Assembly: GCA_013001575.1 (NCBI GenBank)
Contig: JABDMI010000071.1
Location: 1,171-65,170, forward strand
DNA: 64,000 nt
Origin: Gammaproteobacteria bacterium
GTDB taxonomy: Bacteria > Pseudomonadota > Gammaproteobacteria > Steroidobacterales > JABDMI01
Direction of reading: 5' to 3'
The position numbers were made by a program, and so were the translations under genes. Shown one piece after another: positions 8,180-56,509 of this stretch. Within the stretch, counting starts at the first letter, position 1. The number at the start of each line of letters is the position of its first letter. Under the pieces are notes generated by a model, which did not search any database, was not told the origin of the DNA, and saw nothing but the letters and a program-made list of their open reading frames with translations.

Positions 8180-9115
8180 TCAGCGCTTGAGTAATTTCGG
8201 CAATGAAAAGGTGATGGTTTCAACCGCGCCGCTGGTTTCCTGCGCGGCCACACCGCCCCATTCCTTGAGTTGATCCACCACGCCCTGCACCAGTAATTCC
8301 GGGGCCGAGGCACCGGCGGTTAAGCCCACCTTATTGACCTTGTTAAACCAGTCGGCTTGTAGATCTTCGGCACCATCGATCAAATAGCCCGGCACATTGG
8401 CCTTGTCGGCCAGTTCACGCAGGCGGTTGGAATTGGAACTGTTGGGTGAACCAACCACCAGCAATACATCACAGTCCGCCACCAGTTGTTTAACCGCATC
8501 TTGACGGTTCTGGGTGGCATAGCAAATGTCTTCCTTGCGTGGGCTTTTCACTTCGGGGAAGCGTTGCTTGATGGCTTCAACAATGTCATTGGTATCATCT
8601 ACTGACAAAGTGGTTTGGGTCACAAAGGCTAATTGAGCCGGATCGGACACCTCCAGTGACTTCACGTCGTCAACGGTCTCAACCAAATGAATCGTGCCGC
8701 CGTTACTGTCGTCGAATTGACCCATGGTGCCCTCCACTTCCGGATGTCCTGCATGTCCGATCAACAACACCTGGCGTCCATCTTCGCCGTAGCGTTTCAC
8801 TTCCATGTGGACTTTGGTGACCAATGGACAAGTGGCATCAAAGACTCGCAAGTCACGACGCCGGGCTTCGTCCTGTACAGCTTTGGATACGCCATGCGCG
8901 GAAAAGATTACCGTGGCATTGTCGGGGACTTCCTCGAGCTCATCCACAAAGATCGCACCTTTGTCCTTGAGCGAATCCACCACAAATTTGTTATGCACCA
9001 CTTCATGCCGCACATAGATGGGTGCACCAAACAACTCGATGGCACGTTTGACTATATCGATGGCGCGATCAACACCGGCACAAAATCCTCGGGGGTTGGC
9101 AAGTAGAATTTGCAT
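8180..9115 (-). CDS. ispH: 4-hydroxy-3-methylbut-2-enyl diphosphate reductase
   Basis: Full-length IspH/LytB-like sequence ([19 protein letters not shown]..., conserved Cys at CAGV, ATCPLV and ICYATQNRQ). Confidence 0.95.
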
Positions 9116-9119
9116 GCTA

Positions 9120-9710
9120 TTAAGACTCGTCCGGGACAGATGGTTTCATGGCAGCCAGGGCTTTTTCTTTTTTCACTTCCTGCCACCAGTCTATGAGCAG
9201 GAATATTGCCCCGCAGAAAATTGCCATATCGGCCACATTGAAGGCCGGATACCGGCCATTGGGAAACAGGAATTTAAGGAGCGGTATTTGCCCGAAGGGT
9301 TGGTAATGAAAAGACAGGAAATCCACCACATAACCATAGTTGATGCGGTCAATCACATTGCCCAGGGCGCCGGCCATCACCAGGCTTAATGCCAGAGCGA
9401 GAATTTTTTGATCTTTTTTGGCAAAACGGAAAAACCAGATAATGATGCCGGTACACACTATGGCTGAAAGACTGATAAAGAACGGCTTTTGCCAACCGCC
9501 GGCGTCGCTCAAAAAGCTGAAGGCCGCGCCGTAATTTCGTAAATAATACAGATCGAAATAGGACGTGACCACCAGGCGCTCACCGTATTCAAAACGCTGT
9601 ACGATCTCGAATTTAGTCCATTGATCCAGCACCACCAACAGCAAACTGAAACCAATGAACCAGAAACAGGCTTTGGTAGAGAGTTGTGCTTTTTCGGTGT
9701 TTGTATTCAT
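9120..9710 (-). CDS. lspA: Lipoprotein signal peptidase II
   Basis: Multi-TM protein with LspA motifs ([25 protein letters not shown]). Start placed at the internal ATG 9710 so that it follows the ileS stop by 4 nt; the ORF-track start at 9752 would overlap ileS. Confidence 0.9.
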
Positions 9711-29732: not shown

Positions 29733-30719
29733 TTAAATACGCTCTACAGGAAATGCCATTACATCTTTAATCGAGTTTTTTTGCAAGGCCAACATGATCA
29801 AACGATCAACCCCCAAGGCAACCCCCGCACACTCTGGCAAGCCGGAACGCATGGCCTCGAGTAAATACTTGTCTACAGGCATTGGCGATTTTCCAAGTGC
29901 CACACGCCGTTGATTATCCTGTAAAAACCGTTGTGCCAACAATTCGGCATCCTGTACCTCGTCATAGCCATTGGCTATTTCAACGCCCTCCACAAAGACC
30001 TCAAAACGTGCCGCCACATTACGCCCTTGTGCATCTTTCTGGATCTTGGCCAAGGCCGCTTGTGAGGCCGGGTACCCCTGTATAAGCGTAATTCGTCGTG
30101 AAGCTTCTGATGCTGACCTTAGATTTGGGAACACCAAGGTGCTGACCAATAGATCGAGACAAGAACTAAAGTCATCGGTCAGACCACCCGGAATATCAAT
30201 GTGTTTCTGATTCAGCACTTCTTGAATTTCACTCACACTGGTATCAAACACATCTATGCCAGTGTACTCATGCACAACATCCGCATAGCTATAGTGTTGA
30301 ACCTCAACATCACAATCCATGATCTCACGGGCCAGTTCTATCACTTCATGCGCAAGATCCTTGATCGAAAACCCAATTCGATACCACTCCAGCATAGTGA
30401 ATTCGGGATTGTGCTTTTCGCCACTTTCACCCTGCCTGAATACCGGGCCAAGATAGAAACAATCCCCGATGCCAGCTGCCAACAGGCGTTTCATCGGGTA
30501 TTCGGGCGAGGTGTGTAAAAACGTTTTTCCGGACAAAAGTTTTACCGGAATACTGTCGATATGGACTTCGGTCACACTCGATGAACTCAGGCATGGAACC
30601 TGCACTTCGAGCACATTGCGCGCAGCAAAAAAAGCACGAATATTTTGCAATATCCGCGCTCTGTGTTTAAGGGTTTGCAGCGACGCCGTGGGTCGCCAAA
30701 GCTCAGACTCGAATGTCAT
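29733..30719 (-). CDS. epmA: EF-P lysine34 beta-lysyltransferase (PoxA/GenX)
   Basis: Truncated class II LysRS-like catalytic domain (FTMLEWY, GVALGVDRL); directly downstream of efp. Confidence 0.9.
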   Translation of the reverse strand: MTFESELWRPTASLQTLKHRARILQNIRAFFAARNVLEVQVPCLSSSSVTEVHIDSIPVKLLSGKTFLHTSPEYPMKRLLAAGIGDCFYLGPVFRQGESGEKHNPEFTMLEWYRIGFSIKDLAHEVIELAREIMDCDVEVQHYSYADVVHEYTGIDVFDTSVSEIQEVLNQKHIDIPGGLTDDFSSCLDLLVSTLVFPNLRSASEASRRITLIQGYPASQAALAKIQKDAQGRNVAARFEVFVEGVEIANGYDEVQDAELLAQRFLQDNQRRVALGKSPMPVDKYLLEAMRSGLPECAGVALGVDRLIMLALQKNSIKDVMAFPVERI

Positions 30720-30722
30720 GCC

Positions 30723-31292
30723 TCAAGATTTGGCTCGCGAAGAATATTCACCGCTGCGCGTATCCACACGGATCACTTCACCTTCATCCACAAACAAGGG
30801 AACTTGCACAACCGCGCCGGTTTCCAGGGTAGCGGGTTTGGAGCCGCCTTGTGCGGTGTCACCCTTCAGTCCGGGATCCGTTTGGGTAATTTTGAGCTCG
30901 ACAAAATTGGGAGGCACGACGGTGATCGGGTTTCCATTCCACAAGGTAACGGTACACATGTCTTCTTCGAGTAACCATTTGGCCGCATCAGCAACAGCAT
31001 TTTCATCGGCACCAAATTGTTCAAATGTATTTGGGTCCATGAAATGATAAAACTCACCATCGTTATACAAATATTGCATATCGGTTTCCATTACATCAGC
31101 CGCTTCCACCGATTCACCAGATCTAAAGGTTTTTTCAATTACGCGTCCATTTTTCAGGTTGCGCACCCGCACGCGACTGAAGGCTTGACCTTTTCCAGGC
31201 TTAACAAAGGTGTTTTCTACGATTGTATATGGGTCGCCGTCGAGCATGATCTTGAGACCACCCTTGAATTCATTGGTACTATACGTAGCCAT
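30723..31292 (-). CDS. efp: Elongation factor P
   Basis: [19 protein letters not shown]...VKPGKGQAF (modifiable Lys in the PGKGQ loop). Start at the internal ATG with GGAG SD; the ORF-track N-terminal extension is rejected. Confidence 0.95.
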
Positions 31293-31323
31293 TATTTCTC
31301 CACATGACAGATTGAAAAAAGCC

Positions 31324-32358
31324 ATGATAACGCCTTTAAGCAATAAACGCCTGATAAATAACACTGCTTGGTCTAAAAAACATACCACAGACTGGCAAGC
31401 CCAGATGCGCGATGCGGTGACAGAACCAACAATGCTTTTAGATTTATTGGATATACCTCATGCATTACTAACTAAAGCCAACCAGGCGCATGCCTTGTTT
31501 CCGCTGAAAGTTCCGAAGGCGTATGTGTCACGCATGCAAAAAGGGAATATCAATGACCCGCTGTTACAACAGGTTCTACCGCTGGGTACGGAGACCGACG
31601 AGCATCCAGATTTCACCCAAGACCCGGTGGCCGACCTGCAACACAATCCTGTCCCGGGTATTGTGCATAAGTATTCGGGTCGGGTCCTAATGATTACGAC
31701 CGGGGCGTGTGCCGTGCATTGTCGCTATTGCTTTCGTCGCAATTTTCCCTACTCGGAACAAAGTGCCGCGCGTCAAGGCTGGCAAGGTGCACTGGATTAC
31801 ATTCGAGCTGACAAAAGTATTCACGAAGTGATCTTGTCGGGTGGCGACCCCTTATCTTTAAGTAATAACAAACTGGATAATTTGTTCACTGAACTTGATA
31901 ACATCACGCACCTGAAAACAATCCGTTTGCACACACGTCAACCCATCGTATTACCGGATCGTATTGATACCGGATTCTTGCAATTAATTTCTCGCCAGAC
32001 TAAAAACCTCGTCATGGTCTTGCACGCAAATCATGCCAATGAAATTGATGATACGGTGCGGGCTGTGTGTGAGCAATTACTCGCGCAAGGTGTAACTATG
32101 TTGAATCAGTCTGTATTGCTCAGAAATATTAATGATGAACCAGAGACATTGATTGAATTAAGTCATGCCTTGTTTAGTTGCGGGGTTTTGCCCTATTATC
32201 TGAATTTACTGGACCAGGTCAGAGGGGCAAGCCATTTTGCGGTATGTCAGACCCAAGCCAAAGAAATCCACACCAGTATGCAAAAAATTCTTCCTGGATA
32301 TCTGGTTCCCAAATTGGTCAAGGATTCACCCACAATCCCATATAAAACCTGGCTTTAA
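31324..32358 (+). CDS. epmB: EF-P beta-lysylation protein EpmB (lysine 2,3-aminomutase-like radical SAM)
   Basis: [11 protein letters not shown] radical SAM motif. The N-terminus lines up with my recollection of E. coli EpmB when started at 31324. Divergent from efp. Confidence 0.9.
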
Positions 32359-32522
32359 TCTTGGTTCCTGGCTGCTTTAATTCAGCATGAATAATGTTAC
32401 ACTTGACGGCTAGCCTGGGACGTGGCTGGCTGGACCTGGTCATGAATAATCGCGCCGATCCAATTTGATAATAAAACCAACGCAAGATCAAATAACAATC
32501 AATGGAAAACCTATAACAAGTC

Positions 32523-34574
32523 ATGCTGCCAGAAAGAATTACAATCGCAATCATCTCGCCATTTGAAGATGACTCAGTGCATATCAATAGCACCTTGAGA
32601 AATGCTGGAATTACCGTGCATTCGATCTGGTCAAAGAACGAAGAGGATTGCCTGGATGCTTTGCGAGACAATAAATTGCATTTGATATTTCTACGTACCA
32701 AGAATTTCTCGGCCGCCGACGAAAAAATTGTGGATGAGATCAAAGCAATTCAGAAATACATTCCGGTGATCATGATCCATGAAGAGGTCAACCAAAAAAC
32801 CCTGACTATCTGTTTACAAATGGGCGCCCATGATCTGGTCTCGATGGAATACCCCGACCGACTTACTATTTTAACTTGTCGTGAGTTGGGCAGTTATCTG
32901 AAAGCCAGAGAGCTCTTAGAGTTGCGTAAAAGCATTGGAAATTACGAAGAACAATTACAAGTATTGAAATCTGAATCAACCCTGCCTGCCATTGTTTTGA
33001 TGGACGGGATCATAGTTGACGCTAATAAACCGGCTATTTCTTTACTCAGCCCGGACCCGCACAATGATCTACACAGCAGTCCGATCCTGGATTACGTGAA
33101 TCCTGCAGAACAGGTGATTCTGCGTGGCGCACTGAAAGCCGCACGCCAGGGCAATTTTAAACAGGATCAAATTGCCATAAAGATCCTGAATGCGGAAAAA
33201 GAACCGGTCCGCATGACCTGCCTGATCGAACCATATAATTTTGATGACGAGGACTGCATCCGCATGTGCCTCAAAGAAATACCGGTAGCCCAAATAGTTT
33301 CAGGTGATTCCATCCAGCTTGACCCATTGACCAAGATCTATCATCGCAAACAATTCTTGAATATTGCCCAGGAAACCTTGAAGGAACCTCTAGATACGGG
33401 TATCCGGGCCATGCTGTATTTGAAAATTGATGACTTTAAATCACTGCAAGAGCGCGTAGGCATTCTGCACGTGGATGTGGCACTCGAGTGTTTCGCCAAA
33501 GCGATAAAAGAAACTGTTTCCAAGGGTGACATCTATGCACGTTTTGGCGGTAACACCTTTTCAATACTTACTCAAAAAGGCAGTGAAGCCGATGTTTTAT
33601 CCTGGGCCAAGCATTTTCAAAACCATTTAAAAGAACATAAATGCGAGATTAACGGAAAAACAATTGCCCTCAGTTGCTCTATCGGCATTGCTGTGTGGCA
33701 ACAAGAAAGTGATAACATCAGTGATCTGATCCAACGTGCCAAAGACGCATCCGTTGAAGTCCGTAAAACCGGATTAGGCAAGATCAAGATCGATAAACAT
33801 TACGAACAAACCGTCATGAAATCCAAAGCCTTCGATCTGGAATGGGTCAGCCGTATTAAACAGGCATTGCTGCAAAACCGTTTTCAATTGTTCCAGTTTC
33901 CGATCAGTAGTTTGCGCATGACCAGTAAGAACATGATCGATGTGTATATTCGCATGCTGGACGAAGAGCAAAACGTTATTCTTCCTAATGTGTTCATGCC
34001 CACGGCCGAGAGAAACAATCTGAGCAAAAGTCTGGATCGCTGGGTGGTAGGAGCTTCTATTAAATATTGCCAGCAATATCCGGATGCCAAGTTATTCGTA
34101 AGACTTTCCAGACAGTCACTGCAAGATGAAGAATTATTGCCCTGGGCTAAATCGATAATCTCAAAGCATAACATCCAGAATGACAATCTGGTGTTTGAGG
34201 CCGTCGAAAAGGATATTTTCGACCTCGAAAAATCAGGCGTCTCCTTGCAAAAACGCTTTAAAGAATTTCGCAGAGAAGGCTTTGGTCTGGCCATTGAACA
34301 TTTTGGCAAACACCCGTCACACATTACTTTACTGGACGAATACGAGATCGATTACCTCAAGATTGACAGCACATTAATCCAGGGTCTCACGGAAAATCGT
34401 GACCGCCAGAAGATCGTTAAAGCCTTGTGCAAAATGGCGAATAAAAAACAAATTGCAACCATCGCAGAACATGTTGAGACTGCCGACACCATGGCGGTAC
34501 TGTATCAACTAGGGGCGGATTATATGCAAGGCAAATTCACCCTCGAACCCGAGGTCGTTCTGGAAAGCGATTGA
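32523..34574 (+). CDS. FimX-like REC(degenerate)-PAS-GGDEF(degenerate)-EAL(degenerate) c-di-GMP signalling protein
   Basis: 683 aa. N-terminal receiver-like fold lacking the phospho-acceptor Asp (LIFLRTKN). GGNTF in place of GGDEF (33546-33560). DVY in place of EAL (33939-33947), and EHFG in place of DDFG. Confidence 0.75.
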   Translation: MLPERITIAIISPFEDDSVHINSTLRNAGITVHSIWSKNEEDCLDALRDNKLHLIFLRTKNFSAADEKIVDEIKAIQKYIPVIMIHEEVNQKTLTICLQMGAHDLVSMEYPDRLTILTCRELGSYLKARELLELRKSIGNYEEQLQVLKSESTLPAIVLMDGIIVDANKPAISLLSPDPHNDLHSSPILDYVNPAEQVILRGALKAARQGNFKQDQIAIKILNAEKEPVRMTCLIEPYNFDDEDCIRMCLKEIPVAQIVSGDSIQLDPLTKIYHRKQFLNIAQETLKEPLDTGIRAMLYLKIDDFKSLQERVGILHVDVALECFAKAIKETVSKGDIYARFGGNTFSILTQKGSEADVLSWAKHFQNHLKEHKCEINGKTIALSCSIGIAVWQQESDNISDLIQRAKDASVEVRKTGLGKIKIDKHYEQTVMKSKAFDLEWVSRIKQALLQNRFQLFQFPISSLRMTSKNMIDVYIRMLDEEQNVILPNVFMPTAERNNLSKSLDRWVVGASIKYCQQYPDAKLFVRLSRQSLQDEELLPWAKSIISKHNIQNDNLVFEAVEKDIFDLEKSGVSLQKRFKEFRREGFGLAIEHFGKHPSHITLLDEYEIDYLKIDSTLIQGLTENRDRQKIVKALCKMANKKQIATIAEHVETADTMAVLYQLGADYMQGKFTLEPEVVLESD

Positions 34575-45965: not shown

Positions 45966-46385
45966 TTAACTGTCGAGATTATCCAGAGCTTTTTGGAACC
46001 GATTGGCGTGTGAACGCTCGGCCTTCGCCAGAGTTTCAAACCAGTCGGCAATTTCATCAAAGCCTTCGTCGCGAGCGTCTTTGGCCATGCCCGGATACAT
46101 ATCGGTGTATTCATGGGTTTCACCAGCAATCGCTGCTTTCAAATTGTCGCCGGTTGCACCGATTGGCAATCCTGTGGCCGGATCGCCCGACTCTTCCAGA
46201 TACTCCAGATGGCCATGCGCGTGACCGGTTTCGCCTTCAGCGGTAGAACGGAAGACTGAGGCAACGTCGTTGTAGCCTTCAATATCGGCCTTGGCTGCAA
46301 AATACAAATAGCGGCGATTTGCTTGTGATTCACCGGCAAATGCCTCTTTCAAATGAGCTTCGGTCTTGGAACCTTTTAGTGCCAT
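45966..46385 (-). CDS. Rubrerythrin-family diiron protein (no rubredoxin domain)
   Basis: Four-helix ferritin-like motifs: E...ExxH twice ([20 protein letters not shown]). Typical rubrerythrin N-terminus [31 protein letters not shown]. Confidence 0.85.
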
Positions 46386-50837: not shown

Positions 50838-50860
50838 TAAGAACTTTATAGTTTGAGAAT

Positions 50861-50887
50861 AAAAGCCTGCTATATGCAGGCTTTTTG
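50861..50887. terminator. Bidirectional rho-independent terminator between folE2 and the aldo/keto reductase gene
   Basis: AAAAGCCTGC-TATAT-GCAGGCTTTTT. Confidence 0.8.
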
Positions 50888-51013
50888 ATTTTGAATTTAT
50901 TAAGGTAATTAAAATAGCCTATGATGAGGCTTCAAAATTGAACAATTTTTGTGTGTCTATAATTGGTGTCTTTTATAATTAAGCTAATTATGCTTAACAT
51001 GCCAGACTCGAAA

Positions 51014-51916
51014 CTAGGCTACGTCATGACCTCGAGATGCTGACAGCATTCTATACCATTGCTCACGGGTAAGTGATAACTGAAGTGAATCAACGGCCTT
51101 TTTAATTCTGCTAATGTTTCCGGTACCCAAAATCGGCACCGGATTGGAAGGCATTTTCATAACCCAGGCATAAATAAGCTGATCAATCGAATCGATATTC
51201 AGTTCATTCGCTATTTTTTTCAATTCATCAACTATGCGCTTTGTTTTTTCAGTCTTTGGATTGAAAATTTCTCCACCACCCAAACAGGACCATGCCATCG
51301 GGCGAGTTCTGGTTTGTTGCAGATTTTCAAGTATTCCTGTATCAAGCACACCCACATTACCCGGATTGAGCTCGATCTGGTTGGTCACCAAGGGTATATC
51401 CAGTCGAGACTGAAGTAATGACATTTGGGCTGAGGTGAAGTTGGACACACCAAAATATTTTACTTTGCCATCAGATCTGAGTTGATGGAACGCTTCACAT
51501 ATTTCATCAGCATCCATCAAAAAATCAGGTCGGTGAATAAGCAATACATCCAGGTAATCAATGCCTAGGCGACTAAGCGATAACTCAGCCGACGATATGA
51601 TCGCTTGTTTGCTTGAATCATAATGTGGAATATTGTTCTTACTTCCAAGTACAATCCCGCACTTTGACACAATCTCAATCTGCTCTCGCAATGATGGCTC
51701 CAGTTTTAATGCCTCGCCGAACAAGCTCTCGCAGGGAGGATTTCCATACACATGAGCATGATCAACCGTCGTAATTCCAAGATTTATATGCTCTTTCATG
51801 AATGCCAAACATTCTTGAGCACTCAAACCCCATTCTGCAAGACGCCAATAGCCTTGAACCAGTTTGGAAAAATGAGGCCCTTCGGGAGACATTTGAATTT
51901 TTGGAATTATTGCCAT
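51014..51916 (-). CDS. Aldo/keto reductase family oxidoreductase (YdhF-like)
   Basis: 300 aa; AKR motifs DHAHVYG, LLIHRPD, VSNF. Confidence 0.85.
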   Translation of the reverse strand: MAIIPKIQMSPEGPHFSKLVQGYWRLAEWGLSAQECLAFMKEHINLGITTVDHAHVYGNPPCESLFGEALKLEPSLREQIEIVSKCGIVLGSKNNIPHYDSSKQAIISSAELSLSRLGIDYLDVLLIHRPDFLMDADEICEAFHQLRSDGKVKYFGVSNFTSAQMSLLQSRLDIPLVTNQIELNPGNVGVLDTGILENLQQTRTRPMAWSCLGGGEIFNPKTEKTKRIVDELKKIANELNIDSIDQLIYAWVMKMPSNPVPILGTGNISRIKKAVDSLQLSLTREQWYRMLSASRGHDVA

Positions 51917-52129
51917 TTCGAATTCTTGAGTTTAACGCCAAGACGTTCTGGTGCGAAGCTTACGAATGCTAGCGGAGTGACAGGTTGCTTGGTCAGCTTC
52001 AACTTCAGATACCTCTTATCCTGACGCACATGTAATTTCTCACAAGTCTATCAGACTAATCCTACAGACCAAAATTTGAAATTGCTTTATATTAATAACT
52101 CTAGTATTTTTGCAAAAGGAATTGCGCTG

Positions 52130-52275
52130 GCTATTGCGCGACGGCAACTTATTGACGCCGACATCACACCTTATTATCAGATCATGAGTCGTTGTGTTCG
52201 ACGAGCATTCTTATGTGGAGTGGAGTTGACTCGTATTCAGGAGTAGATTATTCGCATCGGCGCAATTGTTAGCGG
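52130..52275 (+). pseudogene. Decayed N-terminal remnant of a Y1/IS200-like transposase-family gene
   Basis: Frame 1 reads [38 protein letters not shown] frame shifted by two nt continues [12 protein letters not shown]. This resembles the conserved N-terminus (..[25 protein letters not shown]) that I recall for this family. It has no start codon, contains a frameshift, and is truncated. Confidence 0.45.
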
Positions 52276-52292
52276 GTTTCTACACGACAAAC

Positions 52293-53021
52293 TCAAACTT
52301 TACCCCAGTCCTGCTGTTCTAGATGTCGGCGTAATTGTTCAACCGATTTGAAGCGTTCGAGAATAAGGGTTTTTTTCAAGCCCCGGCAAATATCTTTAAC
52401 CGCTTGCGGTTGTTTGGCGTAAAACTTTCGGCCACCGAGTAATTCATAAAACAAAGTCACCAGATCAATAATGTCTGCACGCTGGTTTTTACGAATGCCT
52501 TCATCATTATGCAAAAAGTCCAGAATTTTCAAGTGATACCTTAAACCTAAACGGTTAACCACAATATTGCCTTCATGGATATCGCCATGATAATCCCGGA
52601 GTAGATGAATTTCTTCAATTCCCACACACAGTGCATGTAACAAGTGCACGGCTTTGTACAGAGTCAGGCGTTTACCGCGTTGCTTTTTCAAATAATCCGA
52701 CAGCAATTCACCTTCCACGTATTCCGAAATAAACACCACCACTTTCTGTCTCTGGAACTGGATCACTTCGCGGTTATGGTAATGGATCACCATATTGCAA
52801 TCTTTCAAACGATGCAGCTGTTTGGCATTGGCTTTAATGGTTTTGTTCTTGATGTTGCGAACCGGGAAAAACAGTTTAGCTGCACGATCTATTCCGGTAT
52901 CCACTTCGCGAATCTTATACACCTCGCCTTCCCAACCGCTTCCCAGCAGTGAGATGACTTCGTATTTTTGGGCGAGAACACGGCCTGGCCTGAGACCGAA
53001 AGTCTGGATGGAATTTTTCAT
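52293..53021 (-). CDS. Small atypical protein-kinase-like protein (kinase core only)
   Basis: G-loop LGSGWEGEVY, AAK lysine, catalytic loop HGDIHEGN, LDF in place of DFG. No recognisable APE/substrate-binding lobe. 242 aa. Confidence 0.65.
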   Translation of the reverse strand: MKNSIQTFGLRPGRVLAQKYEVISLLGSGWEGEVYKIREVDTGIDRAAKLFFPVRNIKNKTIKANAKQLHRLKDCNMVIHYHNREVIQFQRQKVVVFISEYVEGELLSDYLKKQRGKRLTLYKAVHLLHALCVGIEEIHLLRDYHGDIHEGNIVVNRLGLRYHLKILDFLHNDEGIRKNQRADIIDLVTLFYELLGGRKFYAKQPQAVKDICRGLKKTLILERFKSVEQLRRHLEQQDWGKV

Positions 53022-53091
53022 GCGCTGTAAGAAATTTGCCGAAAGCGGTTTACATTGGCCGGCAATTATAACGTCTTAAATTTGTATTAGC

Positions 53092-54345
53092 CTAACTTTG
53101 TAGACGTCGGATCAGAGTACGCAGGAAGACCTTGTTGAATTGCAGTTGGCAGGCCGCCGAGGCTTGTTCCAGCAAGGTGGATCTGACCCTCAATACAGTA
53201 ACATCACCTTCACTCATGATCGACGCCGAACGCCGGGCCGATTGCAAATAGCCGGTTTCACCAAAGCCGTCACCGGTACGCAGATGCCCTACCGTGCGTC
53301 CACCACTCACTACCCCGACCTCACCTTCAACGATGATGTAGAAGCAATCGTCCATTTCGCCTTCTTTAACGATCTCTTGGCCTTCGGAGTATTCATTCCA
53401 GACACTGGCGCGCATCACTTCCCAGATTTCAGGGTAGGAAAAATCGTGGAAAAACTTGAGGCGACGCAATTTACTGAAATGCTCTTGCTGAGTAAGGATG
53501 TCTTCCTGGTCATTAAGATGCTGGAAGGCATTGGTCAGATCTGCGGCAAACTCCAAACCACTGCCATAGCGACGGGACGGTTCTTTTTGCATGGCACGCA
53601 TGGTGATATCTTCTAGCACTTCCGGTACGTCATTGCGTACGGTGTGCATCGGGATCGGGGTTGAATACACGATCTGGTGTAATAATTTTGACAGACTACT
53701 GGCCACAAACGGTCGTGCGCCGGTCAACATTTCATACATCACAACCCCGAGAGAGAACAGGTCGGTTTGCATGGTGATGTCTTTGGACTCGATCTGCTCG
53801 GGCGCCATGTAACTCGGCGAGCCCGCAATGCCATCAATGGTGGAAAGCTCTGCGTTTTGCACCATGGCTATACCAAAATCGATAATACGAACATCGTTTT
53901 CCATGGTCAGCATAATATTGCTGGGCTTAATATCGCGATGCACCACCCCACGGCCATGGGCGTAATGCAAGGCCTTGGCCACTTTGAAAATGATCTCCAG
54001 TACATCGTCCATGCGGAGCAATTTATCTTTTTTGGTATACGAGGATAATGTGCGTGCACCGTGAATGAATTCCATGACCACAAAATAGCGACCCTCTTCT
54101 TCACCCGCATCGTAGATCGGCAAAATGTTCGGGTGCTGGAGCATCCCAACCATGTGCGCTTCGTTAAAAAACATTTTACGTTGCGCTTCTTCTTCGTGCT
54201 CATCCAAATGATCAGACTTATACACCTTGATAGCCACGTCACGACCGTAGAATGGATCATGTGCTAAATAAATATCACCGGTGCTGCCTTTGCCAACCTT
54301 GTTAACAATGACGTACTTGCCTAATTTGTCGAATATTTCTGCCAT
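53092..54345 (-). CDS. Hanks-type Ser/Thr protein kinase fused to a C-terminal cyclic-nucleotide-binding domain
   Basis: GKGSTGDIY, VAIK, HRDIKPSN, DFGIA and SPSYMAPE kinase motifs. The C-terminus carries the cNMP-binding signature FGETGYL....RRSASI. Confidence 0.85.
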   Translation of the reverse strand: MAEIFDKLGKYVIVNKVGKGSTGDIYLAHDPFYGRDVAIKVYKSDHLDEHEEEAQRKMFFNEAHMVGMLQHPNILPIYDAGEEEGRYFVVMEFIHGARTLSSYTKKDKLLRMDDVLEIIFKVAKALHYAHGRGVVHRDIKPSNIMLTMENDVRIIDFGIAMVQNAELSTIDGIAGSPSYMAPEQIESKDITMQTDLFSLGVVMYEMLTGARPFVASSLSKLLHQIVYSTPIPMHTVRNDVPEVLEDITMRAMQKEPSRRYGSGLEFAADLTNAFQHLNDQEDILTQQEHFSKLRRLKFFHDFSYPEIWEVMRASVWNEYSEGQEIVKEGEMDDCFYIIVEGEVGVVSGGRTVGHLRTGDGFGETGYLQSARRSASIMSEGDVTVLRVRSTLLEQASAACQLQFNKVFLRTLIRRLQS

Positions 54346-54384: not shown

Positions 54385-54906
54385 TCAAATCGTGAATCCG
54401 GTGTAGTTGCTAAGTAAAAAATCGCATAAATACAATCCGGCTCCAGCAAACAAGCCTGCGATCAGGTCATCCAGCATAATACCAAGTCCGCCATGAACAT
54501 GCGCGTCTAATTGCTTGATTGGCCAAGGTTTTATGATATCGAAAAACCGAAATAATGCAAAACCGATCAGCAGTGCAGGAATACTAACCGCCGCAAAGAG
54601 CATGACCAAATAAAATCCGGCGATCTCGTCCCAGACAATCGAGCCGTGGTCGTGCACGCCGAGCAAGTCGGCGCTTTTCCCACATATCCAGATACCGAGC
54701 AGACTAATTATTGCGAGTATAAGTAATTTAATCGACAGTGACTGTGACGCCGTTAACAGAATGAAAGGAAGTGCCGCCAAAGTGCCCGCCGTACCTGGCG
54801 CTTTAGGCACCAAACCGGTACCAAAACCCAAGGCTAACCAGTGCACCGGGTGCTTAATGAATTGTTGCCTTAGTTCGGCCGGCGGTATACTGGATTTTTT
54901 TGACAT
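54385..54906 (-). CDS. pgpA: Phosphatidylglycerophosphatase A
   Basis: About 170 aa membrane protein, GFGTGL..KAPGTAGTL and DHGSIVWDE motifs; follows thiL as in E. coli. Confidence 0.9.
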   Translation of the reverse strand: MSKKSSIPPAELRQQFIKHPVHWLALGFGTGLVPKAPGTAGTLAALPFILLTASQSLSIKLLILAIISLLGIWICGKSADLLGVHDHGSIVWDEIAGFYLVMLFAAVSIPALLIGFALFRFFDIIKPWPIKQLDAHVHGGLGIMLDDLIAGLFAGAGLYLCDFLLSNYTGFTI

Positions 54907-55906: not shown

Positions 55907-56509
55907 TCATTTTTCGTCCTGGTCATTTTTCGGCATATACCAGTCGGGAAAAAAGCGTTTTACGTTCTCATTATCGCGCGCCAGGGCATGGCAACCGTCG
56001 ATCATGGGCGGTTTGCGATTCTTGAACAGTTCGCGGGTCATGTCCTTGATCTCGGCACCGCTTTGTTCTTTGCGACGCTTGGCAAGCAAGGGGCCCAGCG
56101 TCTGGAAAACCACGGTTGCCAGATCACGCAGTAACCCGGTGTGATGGGTACAACCCCGCGTTTGACCAACCGCTTTCTCGGTCGCCGCCGTAAAACCGGA
56201 AACGATCCTTTGTCCGATTAGTTCCTTGTAATTTGGCGTGATCACACCACAGTTCGGGTACGGATGATGATCGCTGACCGCTTCGATATCCACTATGGTA
56301 AAGCTGGTATCCACGGTCAGGCGCATTTTCATGTCATGAATATAATCACCCGGTTTCATGTGCCCGCGTAAAGTGGTGTCAAAGGCATAGGATTTGGTAT
56401 CGGTTAAGCGGCCTTCAATATCGAACAAGCCATCTTCACGTTCATAACCGATGCAATCGATCAGACGTTGATGAATTTGTTGTCGTGCAACGGGTTCGGA
56501 TAACGGCAT
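55907..56509 (-). CDS. DUF2889 family protein
   Basis: 200 aa, with GLFDIEGRLTDTK and RGCTHHTGLL segments matching my recollection of DUF2889; function unknown. Confidence 0.55.
   Translation of the reverse strand: MPLSEPVARQQIHQRLIDCIGYEREDGLFDIEGRLTDTKSYAFDTTLRGHMKPGDYIHDMKMRLTVDTSFTIVDIEAVSDHHPYPNCGVITPNYKELIGQRIVSGFTAATEKAVGQTRGCTHHTGLLRDLATVVFQTLGPLLAKRRKEQSGAEIKDMTRELFKNRKPPMIDGCHALARDNENVKRFFPDWYMPKNDQDEK

Follow-up and report, generated by a model that had tools for sequence, protein, structure and literature searches.

Here, we examine two neighbouring kinase genes on the minus strand of a 64,000-nucleotide (nt) stretch of gammaproteobacterial DNA (GenBank contig JABDMI010000071.1, positions 1,171 to 65,170), which is referred to below as the window. 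The larger gene encodes a Hanks-type Ser/Thr kinase with a C-terminal cyclic-nucleotide-binding (CNB) domain, and the smaller one a minimal kinase that we call the mini-kinase. We will argue that the pair is probably a lineage-specific juxtaposition of two independent signalling genes in one gammaproteobacterial clade. It is not a two-gene system conserved across lineages, as the pair occurs in the window clade only: a mini-kinase adjoins the CNB kinase in none of 83 CNB-kinase loci, and a CNB kinase adjoins the mini-kinase in one of 80 mini-kinase loci, which is that of the closest relative (L001). Of the 83 loci, two are from ENA assemblies with contigs in the megabase range, one is from a short JGI contig and 80 are from metagenome contigs. 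The 80 mini-kinase loci are the best ones among at least 573 species genomes with a member of the family.

The kinase pair and its extent

The initial annotation of this DNA had described a tandem kinase module. Both open reading frames (ORFs), 53092-54345 (417 amino acids, aa) and 52293-53021 (242 aa), are indeed present on the minus strand with 70 nt between them, and all the motifs listed for them are found in the translations. The features of the locus are the following.

55907-56509, minus strand: DUF2889 gene, between nusB and thiL (Pfam, E = 1.2e-37)
54385..54906, minus strand: pgpA, directly upstream of the CNB kinase gene with a 39-nt gap (Pfam PgpA, E = 1.6e-41)
53092..54345, minus strand: Hanks-type Ser/Thr kinase with C-terminal CNB domain, cytoplasmic, 417 aa
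53563..54315, minus strand: kinase domain, residues 11-261 of the large protein (Pfam PF00069, E = 7.1e-53)
53164..53394, minus strand: beta-barrel of the CNB domain, residues 318-394 (Pfam PF00027, 55.2 bits against a cut-off of 27.5)
53218..53265, minus strand: phosphate-binding cassette F361-G-E ... R372-S-A374-S-I, conserved in 40 orthologues and aligned to PKG
53022..53091, minus strand: 70-nt spacer from the large to the small kinase gene, with a perfect TATAAT and a weak hairpin
52293..53021, minus strand: 'mini-Hanks' kinase, 242 aa (Pfam, family alignment, AlphaFold, Foldseek)
52566..52589, minus strand: catalytic loop of the small kinase, H145-G-D147-I-H149-E-G-N152, with HGDxHxxN replacing HRDxKxxN
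52518..52520, minus strand: D168 of the small kinase, equivalent to the D of DFG (here DFL), family-invariant in the alignment
51917..52292, no strand: 376-nt spacer without a recognisable gene (Pfam, plasmid, PP2C and Rfam searches)
51014..51916, minus strand: aldo-keto reductase gene, between the small kinase gene and folE2 (Pfam Aldo_ket_red, E = 3.8e-49)

As a module, the pair does not hold up. The check on co-occurrence, run as gene adjacency, finds that the two genes are not co-localised outside the window clade, and in two relatives a hairpin stands between them. The order large-then-small was found in the window and in six further contigs (L001, L164/L165, L167 and L168/L169), whose small proteins share 64-100% and whose large proteins share 82-100% identity with those of the window. 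The large kinase has the 417-residue form in these loci, except in L167, where the called gene has 384 residues. The two genes are 57-72 nt apart in the window and in L001, L164 and L168; for L167 the distance is about 70 nt when the aligned start is used.

All paired loci that reach far enough upstream (L164/L165, L167 and L168) have the DUF2889 gene between nusB and thiL. This gene was observed at that position in the window-clade loci L084, L164/L165, L167 and L168, but is missing there from all 82 CNB-kinase loci that are more distant, so it marks the same clade as the kinase pair. One further mini-kinase (L166, 59% identity) lies on the same tree branch as the window clade and is unpaired. 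Its gene (1671-2393) stands beside genes for two large proteins without a Pfam match (1005 and 546 aa), with a reverse-transcriptase (RVT_1) gene nearby.

The sequence of the spacer between the two kinase genes is not conserved among the relatives. In L001 and L168 it contains a GC-rich hairpin of 11-13 bp followed by a U-run, with minimum free energies (MFE) of -16.1 kcal/mol (z = -2.8) and -17.6 kcal/mol (z = -4.2), respectively, and a similar inverted repeat is present in L167. Such terminator-like hairpins between the genes indicate separate transcription units. The hairpin of the window, which lies downstream of the perfect TATAAT, has an MFE of only -8.7 kcal/mol. In the reading that we favour, the small gene of the window clade would likely be transcribed on its own.

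It is also of interest where the small gene came from. The small gene has a GC content at third codon positions (GC3) of 0.47; the large gene, at 0.57, is in this respect like its neighbours. In a rough neighbour-joining tree the small kinases of the window clade form a separate branch. The closest small kinases of the genome collection outside the clade are of Acidobacteriota type (58-59% identity), with most gammaproteobacterial loci at about 54%. The low GC3, the separate branch and the Acidobacteriota-type relatives fit a horizontal acquisition of the small gene, albeit not decisively; it may have entered, probably by horizontal transfer, at the point where the pgpA and dxs operons converge. 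The accessory origin that had been suggested for both genes is still plausible for the small one, while for the large one it is refuted by its fixed position next to pgpA (see below). The transposase remnant that was thought to lie beside the pair could not be recovered: in 51917-52292, the place for such a remnant if it directly followed the small kinase gene, no ORF has a Pfam match at E ≤ 1, and the segment has no similarity to plasmid records.

The CNB kinase

The translation of the large gene contains the motifs DVAIKVY, VHRDIKPSN, IIDFGIA, SPSYMAPE and FGETGYLQSARRSASI. The Pkinase profile of Pfam matches it with 180.1 bits (gathering score 31.7, E = 7e-53) over positions 1-253 of 263, and cNMP_binding matches residues 318-394 above its gathering score (E = 7e-15). 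These searches and single-protein structure predictions uphold the initial domain calls for both proteins. The AlphaFold model of the large protein (predicted local distance difference test (pLDDT) 82.6, predicted template modelling score (pTM) 0.68) consists of the kinase domain, two helices, the beta-barrel and the B and C helices.

An alignment of 40 orthologues was used to examine which residues are kept. In the kinase domain, the G-loop glycines G18, G20 and G23 (GKGSTG), K40 and E62 are invariant, as are the catalytic loop H136-R-D138-x-K140-x-x-N143 and D156-F-G158. The same is true of S176-P-S178-Y-M-x-P-E183 with P182, of D195 in subdomain IX and R259 in subdomain XI, and of three serines of the activation loop, S168, S176 and S178. 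From these residues it follows that the protein is a complete kinase of the arginine-aspartate (RD) type, whose activation loop is phosphorylatable. In the CNB cassette, F361, G362, E363, R372 and A374 are invariant, while the residue after the cassette Arg varies among the orthologues (S, T, Q, R or M). Among solved structures, the CNB domain is closest to those of PKG from Plasmodium and of PKA regulatory subunits. The cassette aligns with the FGE...R(S/T)A of functional PKG sites, and the domain with functional sites of PKA as well. The large protein is, then, a single-chain Hanks kinase with a CNB domain whose cassette is intact and whose ligand-contacting residues are conserved, in the reverse order to PKG, just as had been proposed.

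The likeness to PKA and PKG that was drawn from this holds in part. As in those enzymes, a canonical FGE...R(S/T)A CNB domain is coupled to a Ser/Thr kinase, and the nucleotide-gated logic is likely shared. However, the kinase is PknB-like and not of the AGC family, the CNB domain is single and C-terminal instead of N-terminal, and neither an AGC tail nor a pseudosubstrate was identified in the large protein. The likeness is therefore one of function and not of family membership. The best NCBIfam match is indeed the PknB/Stk1 kinase domain (E = 1.8e-80), and every Hanks motif of that family is present. The protein differs from PknB/Stk1 in having no transmembrane segment and no PASTA region, the CNB domain taking their place at the C terminus; because of the missing PASTA region, it reaches 271.6 bits against the PknB/Stk1 equivalog cut-off of 450.

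On the basis of these likenesses, binding of cAMP or cGMP would regulate the large kinase, by moving the B and C helices of the CNB domain and thereby switching the kinase activity. The enzyme would be PKG-like in principle, but with a PknB-type kinase and the reverse domain order. Surveys list cNMP_binding among the domains that are fused to bacterial Ser/Thr kinases or PP2C (PMC11032199, PMC12088040, PMC2887360). In the literature searched, we found neither a functional study of the Pkinase plus cNMP_binding architecture nor a description of the mini-kinase family discussed below. The CNB kinase is a candidate cyclic-nucleotide-dependent protein kinase of bacteria that should be tractable to study.

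We now consider its place in the genome. Upstream of both kinase genes and on the same strand, the ORF list and Pfam give ribD-ribE-ribBA-ribH-nusB-DUF2889-thiL-pgpA, so that both genes do lie behind the rib-nusB-thiL-pgpA genes as was noted at the outset. Homologues of the large kinase at 63-67% identity are abundant, and all are Pkinase plus cNMP_binding. A pgpA homologue stands directly upstream on the same strand in 80 of the 83 CNB-kinase loci, whose kinases are 63-66% identical to that of the window, the other three having just 34-161 bases of upstream DNA, which is too short to judge. The synteny extends further, with thiL and nusB before pgpA and usually xseB and rubrerythrin after the kinase. 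In the loci with called genes, 8-15 nt separate pgpA from the kinase, compared with 39 nt in the window.

The corresponding block of E. coli K-12, nrdR-ribD-ribE-nusB-thiL-pgpA followed by yajO-dxs-ispA-xseB, is without kinases. Taken together with the position at pgpA in 80 of 83 loci, this means that the kinase was added to the 3' end of the operon long ago and has become fixed there. The CNB kinase is thus the conserved last gene of the nusB-thiL-pgpA operon in a broad group of Woeseiaceae-like marine-sediment Gammaproteobacteria; such strict synteny with housekeeping genes is rare for a eukaryote-like kinase. A search with the CNB domain alone as query returned almost only fragments of the same orthologue family, followed by a drop to 29% identity, and is uninformative on other architectures.

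The mini-kinase and its phosphatase neighbour

The small protein contains the motifs LGSGWEGEVY, AAKLF and YHGDIHEGN. Pfam Pkinase matches it with 52.1 bits (against 31.7, E = 8e-14), over profile positions 1-142 of 263 only. When aligned to the large kinase, it has two gaps of 24 columns each, the first of which covers the activation segment, the P+1 loop and the APE motif, and the second the alpha-G region. The N-lobe, the catalytic loop, alpha-E, alpha-F and alpha-H/I are kept. The AlphaFold model (pLDDT 92.4) contains no elements that match the activation segment, P+1 loop, APE motif or G helix. The gaps and the model bear out the view of a minimal kinase-like protein without a platform for peptide substrates.

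The best Foldseek matches are Stk1/PknB of S. aureus (4eqm) and PknB of M. tuberculosis, and PknB/Stk1 also gives the best sequence matches. The mini-kinase differs from these in lacking the activation segment, APE motif and G helix and in having HGD and DFL. The latter motif had been read as LDF in place of DFG. The Gly is indeed lost, but D168-F-L of the small kinase aligns on the D-F-G of Stk1 and of the large kinase, so the metal-binding Asp is kept and the Gly alone is missing.

In an alignment of 60 family members, which has a mean column identity of 66%, K49, H145, G146, D147, H149, N152, K165, D168 and D183 are invariant; so are G27 and G29 of the G-loop, with G32 nearly so. Conservation does not extend to the alpha-C Glu, the HRD Arg, the catalytic-loop Lys or the DFG Gly. 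At the position of the alpha-C Glu the window has Q67, according to a pairwise alignment to S. aureus PknB, and the family consensus Lys. Kannan et al. regarded the HRD Arg, activation loop and G helix as features peculiar to the eukaryotic protein kinase (ePK) and PknB families, and tied the DFG Gly to conformational switching (PMC1821047). The small kinase is thus a Hanks fold without HRD Arg, DFG Gly, activation segment and G helix. Since the catalytic residues are invariant, it may well be an active phosphotransferase that does not depend on phosphorylation of an activation loop. Four regulatory elements have been lost together while the catalytic residues were kept, and the family would show what a minimal Hanks core is able to do.

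A relation to RIO or Bud32 had also been suggested, and some family members are annotated as 'Bud32' by JGI. The size is similar, the activation loop and the substrate-binding subdomains are likewise absent, and the catalytic loop is of the HGDxxxxN type. The assignment fails, however, on the direct comparison: the protein scores 15.5 bits with the Bud32 model TIGR03724 (cut-off 125), it has no RIO1 (PF01163) match at E ≤ 0.01, and no RIO or Bud32 structure is among its top 50 Foldseek matches, which are headed by PknB/Stk1. Nor do Kae1/KEOPS or ribosome-biogenesis genes occur among its recurrent neighbours, the partner being a PP2C.

The homologue search returned 2,634 sequences, the best 120 of which are nearly all of 236-262 residues and, outside the clade of the window, 52-59% identical to its protein. 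Across phyla, the members of this very strongly conserved family are 50-59% identical. The hosts are Acidobacteriota, Nitrospinota, Nitrospirota, Omnitrophota, WOR-3, Gemmatimonadota, Planctomycetota, Bdellovibrionota and Gammaproteobacteria; among the carriers are Methylohalomonas lacus and a strain of Nitrospina. An exhaustive profile search against 1.84 billion cluster representatives gave only 94 matches at E ≤ 1e-30. The full-length ones have about 236-251 residues and a few carry N-terminal extensions, with no fusions among the family-level matches. The family is thus sharply set apart from generic kinases.

In 39 of the 80 mini-kinase loci, a gene of about 270 residues directly adjoins the kinase. 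It encodes a PP2C-family phosphatase (PF13672, E = 6e-15) with DGMGG and SDGLFD motifs. After greedy gene calling, on which the neighbour counts are based, it is immediately downstream in 29 of these loci and upstream in 4. In several loci the called start of the PP2C gene precedes the kinase stop, as in L049 (8711 and 8720), whose PP2C gene occupies 8711-9526 on the plus strand. No other neighbour recurs in more than 7 of the 80 loci, and the PP2C-linked kinases form coherent groups in the rough neighbour-joining tree.

The adjacency suggests a phosphorylation cycle, in which the small kinase would be opposed by the PP2C of the adjacent gene in about half of the genomes sampled. It is the arrangement that is described for pairs of eukaryotic-type Ser/Thr kinases and phosphatases (eSTK/eSTP; PMC12088040). 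PknB-PstP, Stk1-Stp and PrkC-PrpC are such pairs, and the frames of the mini-kinase and its PP2C overlap in several loci; the mini-kinase differs from the kinases of these pairs in being a soluble protein of 240 residues without sensor domains or activation loop. What we see looks like an undescribed and widely distributed kinase/phosphatase pair. The 64-kb window itself contains no PP2C homologue, and a tblastn search of 51917-52292 with five PP2C partners for a decayed copy gave chance-level matches only (E ≥ 0.59).

Alternative readings and neighbouring genes

Several observations weigh against a mere juxtaposition. The adjacency has been kept in six further contigs while the small protein diverged to 64% identity, which is longer than a neutral juxtaposition need last. 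The two genes share a strand and are 70 nt apart, and the hairpin of the window is weak (z = +0.8), so that read-through is possible there. The clade has no PP2C neighbour, and the small kinase may therefore have a different partner in it. Furthermore, the pair counts are counts of gene adjacency at loci, and the ligand, the substrates and the activity are inferred.

These points lend themselves to a two-kinase relay specific to the clade, in which the mini-kinase has been re-partnered with the CNB kinase. The cyclic-nucleotide-gated kinase would then phosphorylate the mini-kinase, or the mini-kinase would prime the RD-type activation loop of the large kinase, where S168, S176 and S178 offer invariant serines. 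The retention of the pair at the identities given above, the common strand with gaps of 57-72 nt and the missing PP2C adjacency are all in line with it. We nevertheless consider the relay rather unlikely, as the two genes do not lie together beyond the clade (0 of 83 CNB-kinase loci and 1 of 80 mini-kinase loci), L166 is on the same neighbour-joining branch yet unpaired, terminator-like hairpins part the genes in L001 and L168, and the large kinase is equally conserved in many genomes that have no small neighbour. The more specific history, in which the mini-kinase is the catalytic half of an undescribed kinase/PP2C pair of many phyla and the window clade lost the adjacent PP2C and re-partnered the kinase with the cyclic-nucleotide-gated Hanks kinase of the operon, seems unlikely to us. 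If true, it would amount to a relay that ties a cyclic-nucleotide signal to the targets of the mini-kinase. With the juxtaposition of two independent genes as the probable explanation, 'tandem kinase system' should not be carried forward as the name of a general system.

Another option considered was that the small protein has no catalytic activity and acts as a pseudokinase or scaffold, and a pseudokinase partner had indeed been offered as one possibility at the outset. The replacement of the alpha-C Glu that partners the beta-3 Lys (Q67 in the window, Lys in the consensus), the loss of the HRD Arg and catalytic-loop Lys (HGDxH) and the absence of activation segment and G helix are what one would expect in that case. 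On the other hand, all 60 aligned sequences, which come from many phyla, have K49, D147, N152, D168, G27, G29 and D183, as expected for an active phosphotransferase, and the PP2C adjacency speaks for a phosphorylation cycle. HGDxxxxN catalytic loops are, moreover, found in the active RIO, Bud32 and APH enzymes. A dead protein is thus improbable.

We also weighed a role in anti-phage defence, as a kinase system of the PD-T4-6, Stk2 or MADS kind. With the PADLOC profiles PD-T4-6 and mad6, the large kinase gives E-values of 5e-81 and 3e-68 and the small one of about 1e-15, and the MAD6 family of NCBIfam matches both. These matches are, however, limited to the generic kinase domain and stay far short of the family cut-offs, with MAD6 giving 163.7 and 49 bits where 460 are required. 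In 80 of 83 loci the large gene has its fixed place in a housekeeping operon, and the neighbours are core genes (rib, nusB, thiL, pgpA, dxs, ispA, folE2 and EF-P), with no defence or mobile-element genes among those examined. This makes a defence role extremely improbable.

Finally, a few observations on the surroundings can be given. The aldo-keto reductase gene is a window-specific insertion, absent at this position from L001, L167 and L168, in which folE2 lies directly 3' of the small kinase. It has the lowest GC3 of the region (0.39). In E. coli yajO, also an aldo-keto reductase gene, occupies the same position, but in the opposite orientation relative to dxs. Rfam returned nothing around the kinase pair except two sub-threshold leader-like matches outside it, at 50856-50964 on the minus strand (Phe_leader with 29.4 bits against 55, and Trp_leader). 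They fall between the folE2 and aldo-keto reductase genes, which converge here, and probably reflect only a terminator-like hairpin region.

Among the 16 window ORFs scanned with Pfam, none has an adenylate or guanylate cyclase, FHA or PP2C domain. Elsewhere in the window, 29733-34574 encodes an EpmA-like class II tRNA-synthetase paralogue, EF-P, a radical-SAM protein (EpmB-like) and a GGDEF-EAL protein. The rubrerythrin gene (45966-46385, minus strand) encodes a protein 88-92% identical to its counterparts in CNB-kinase loci (73% in one locus); in the same loci, pgpA, thiL and nusB are just 28-59% and the kinase about 64% identical, which makes the conservation of the rubrerythrin unusually strong for a single gene in the block.

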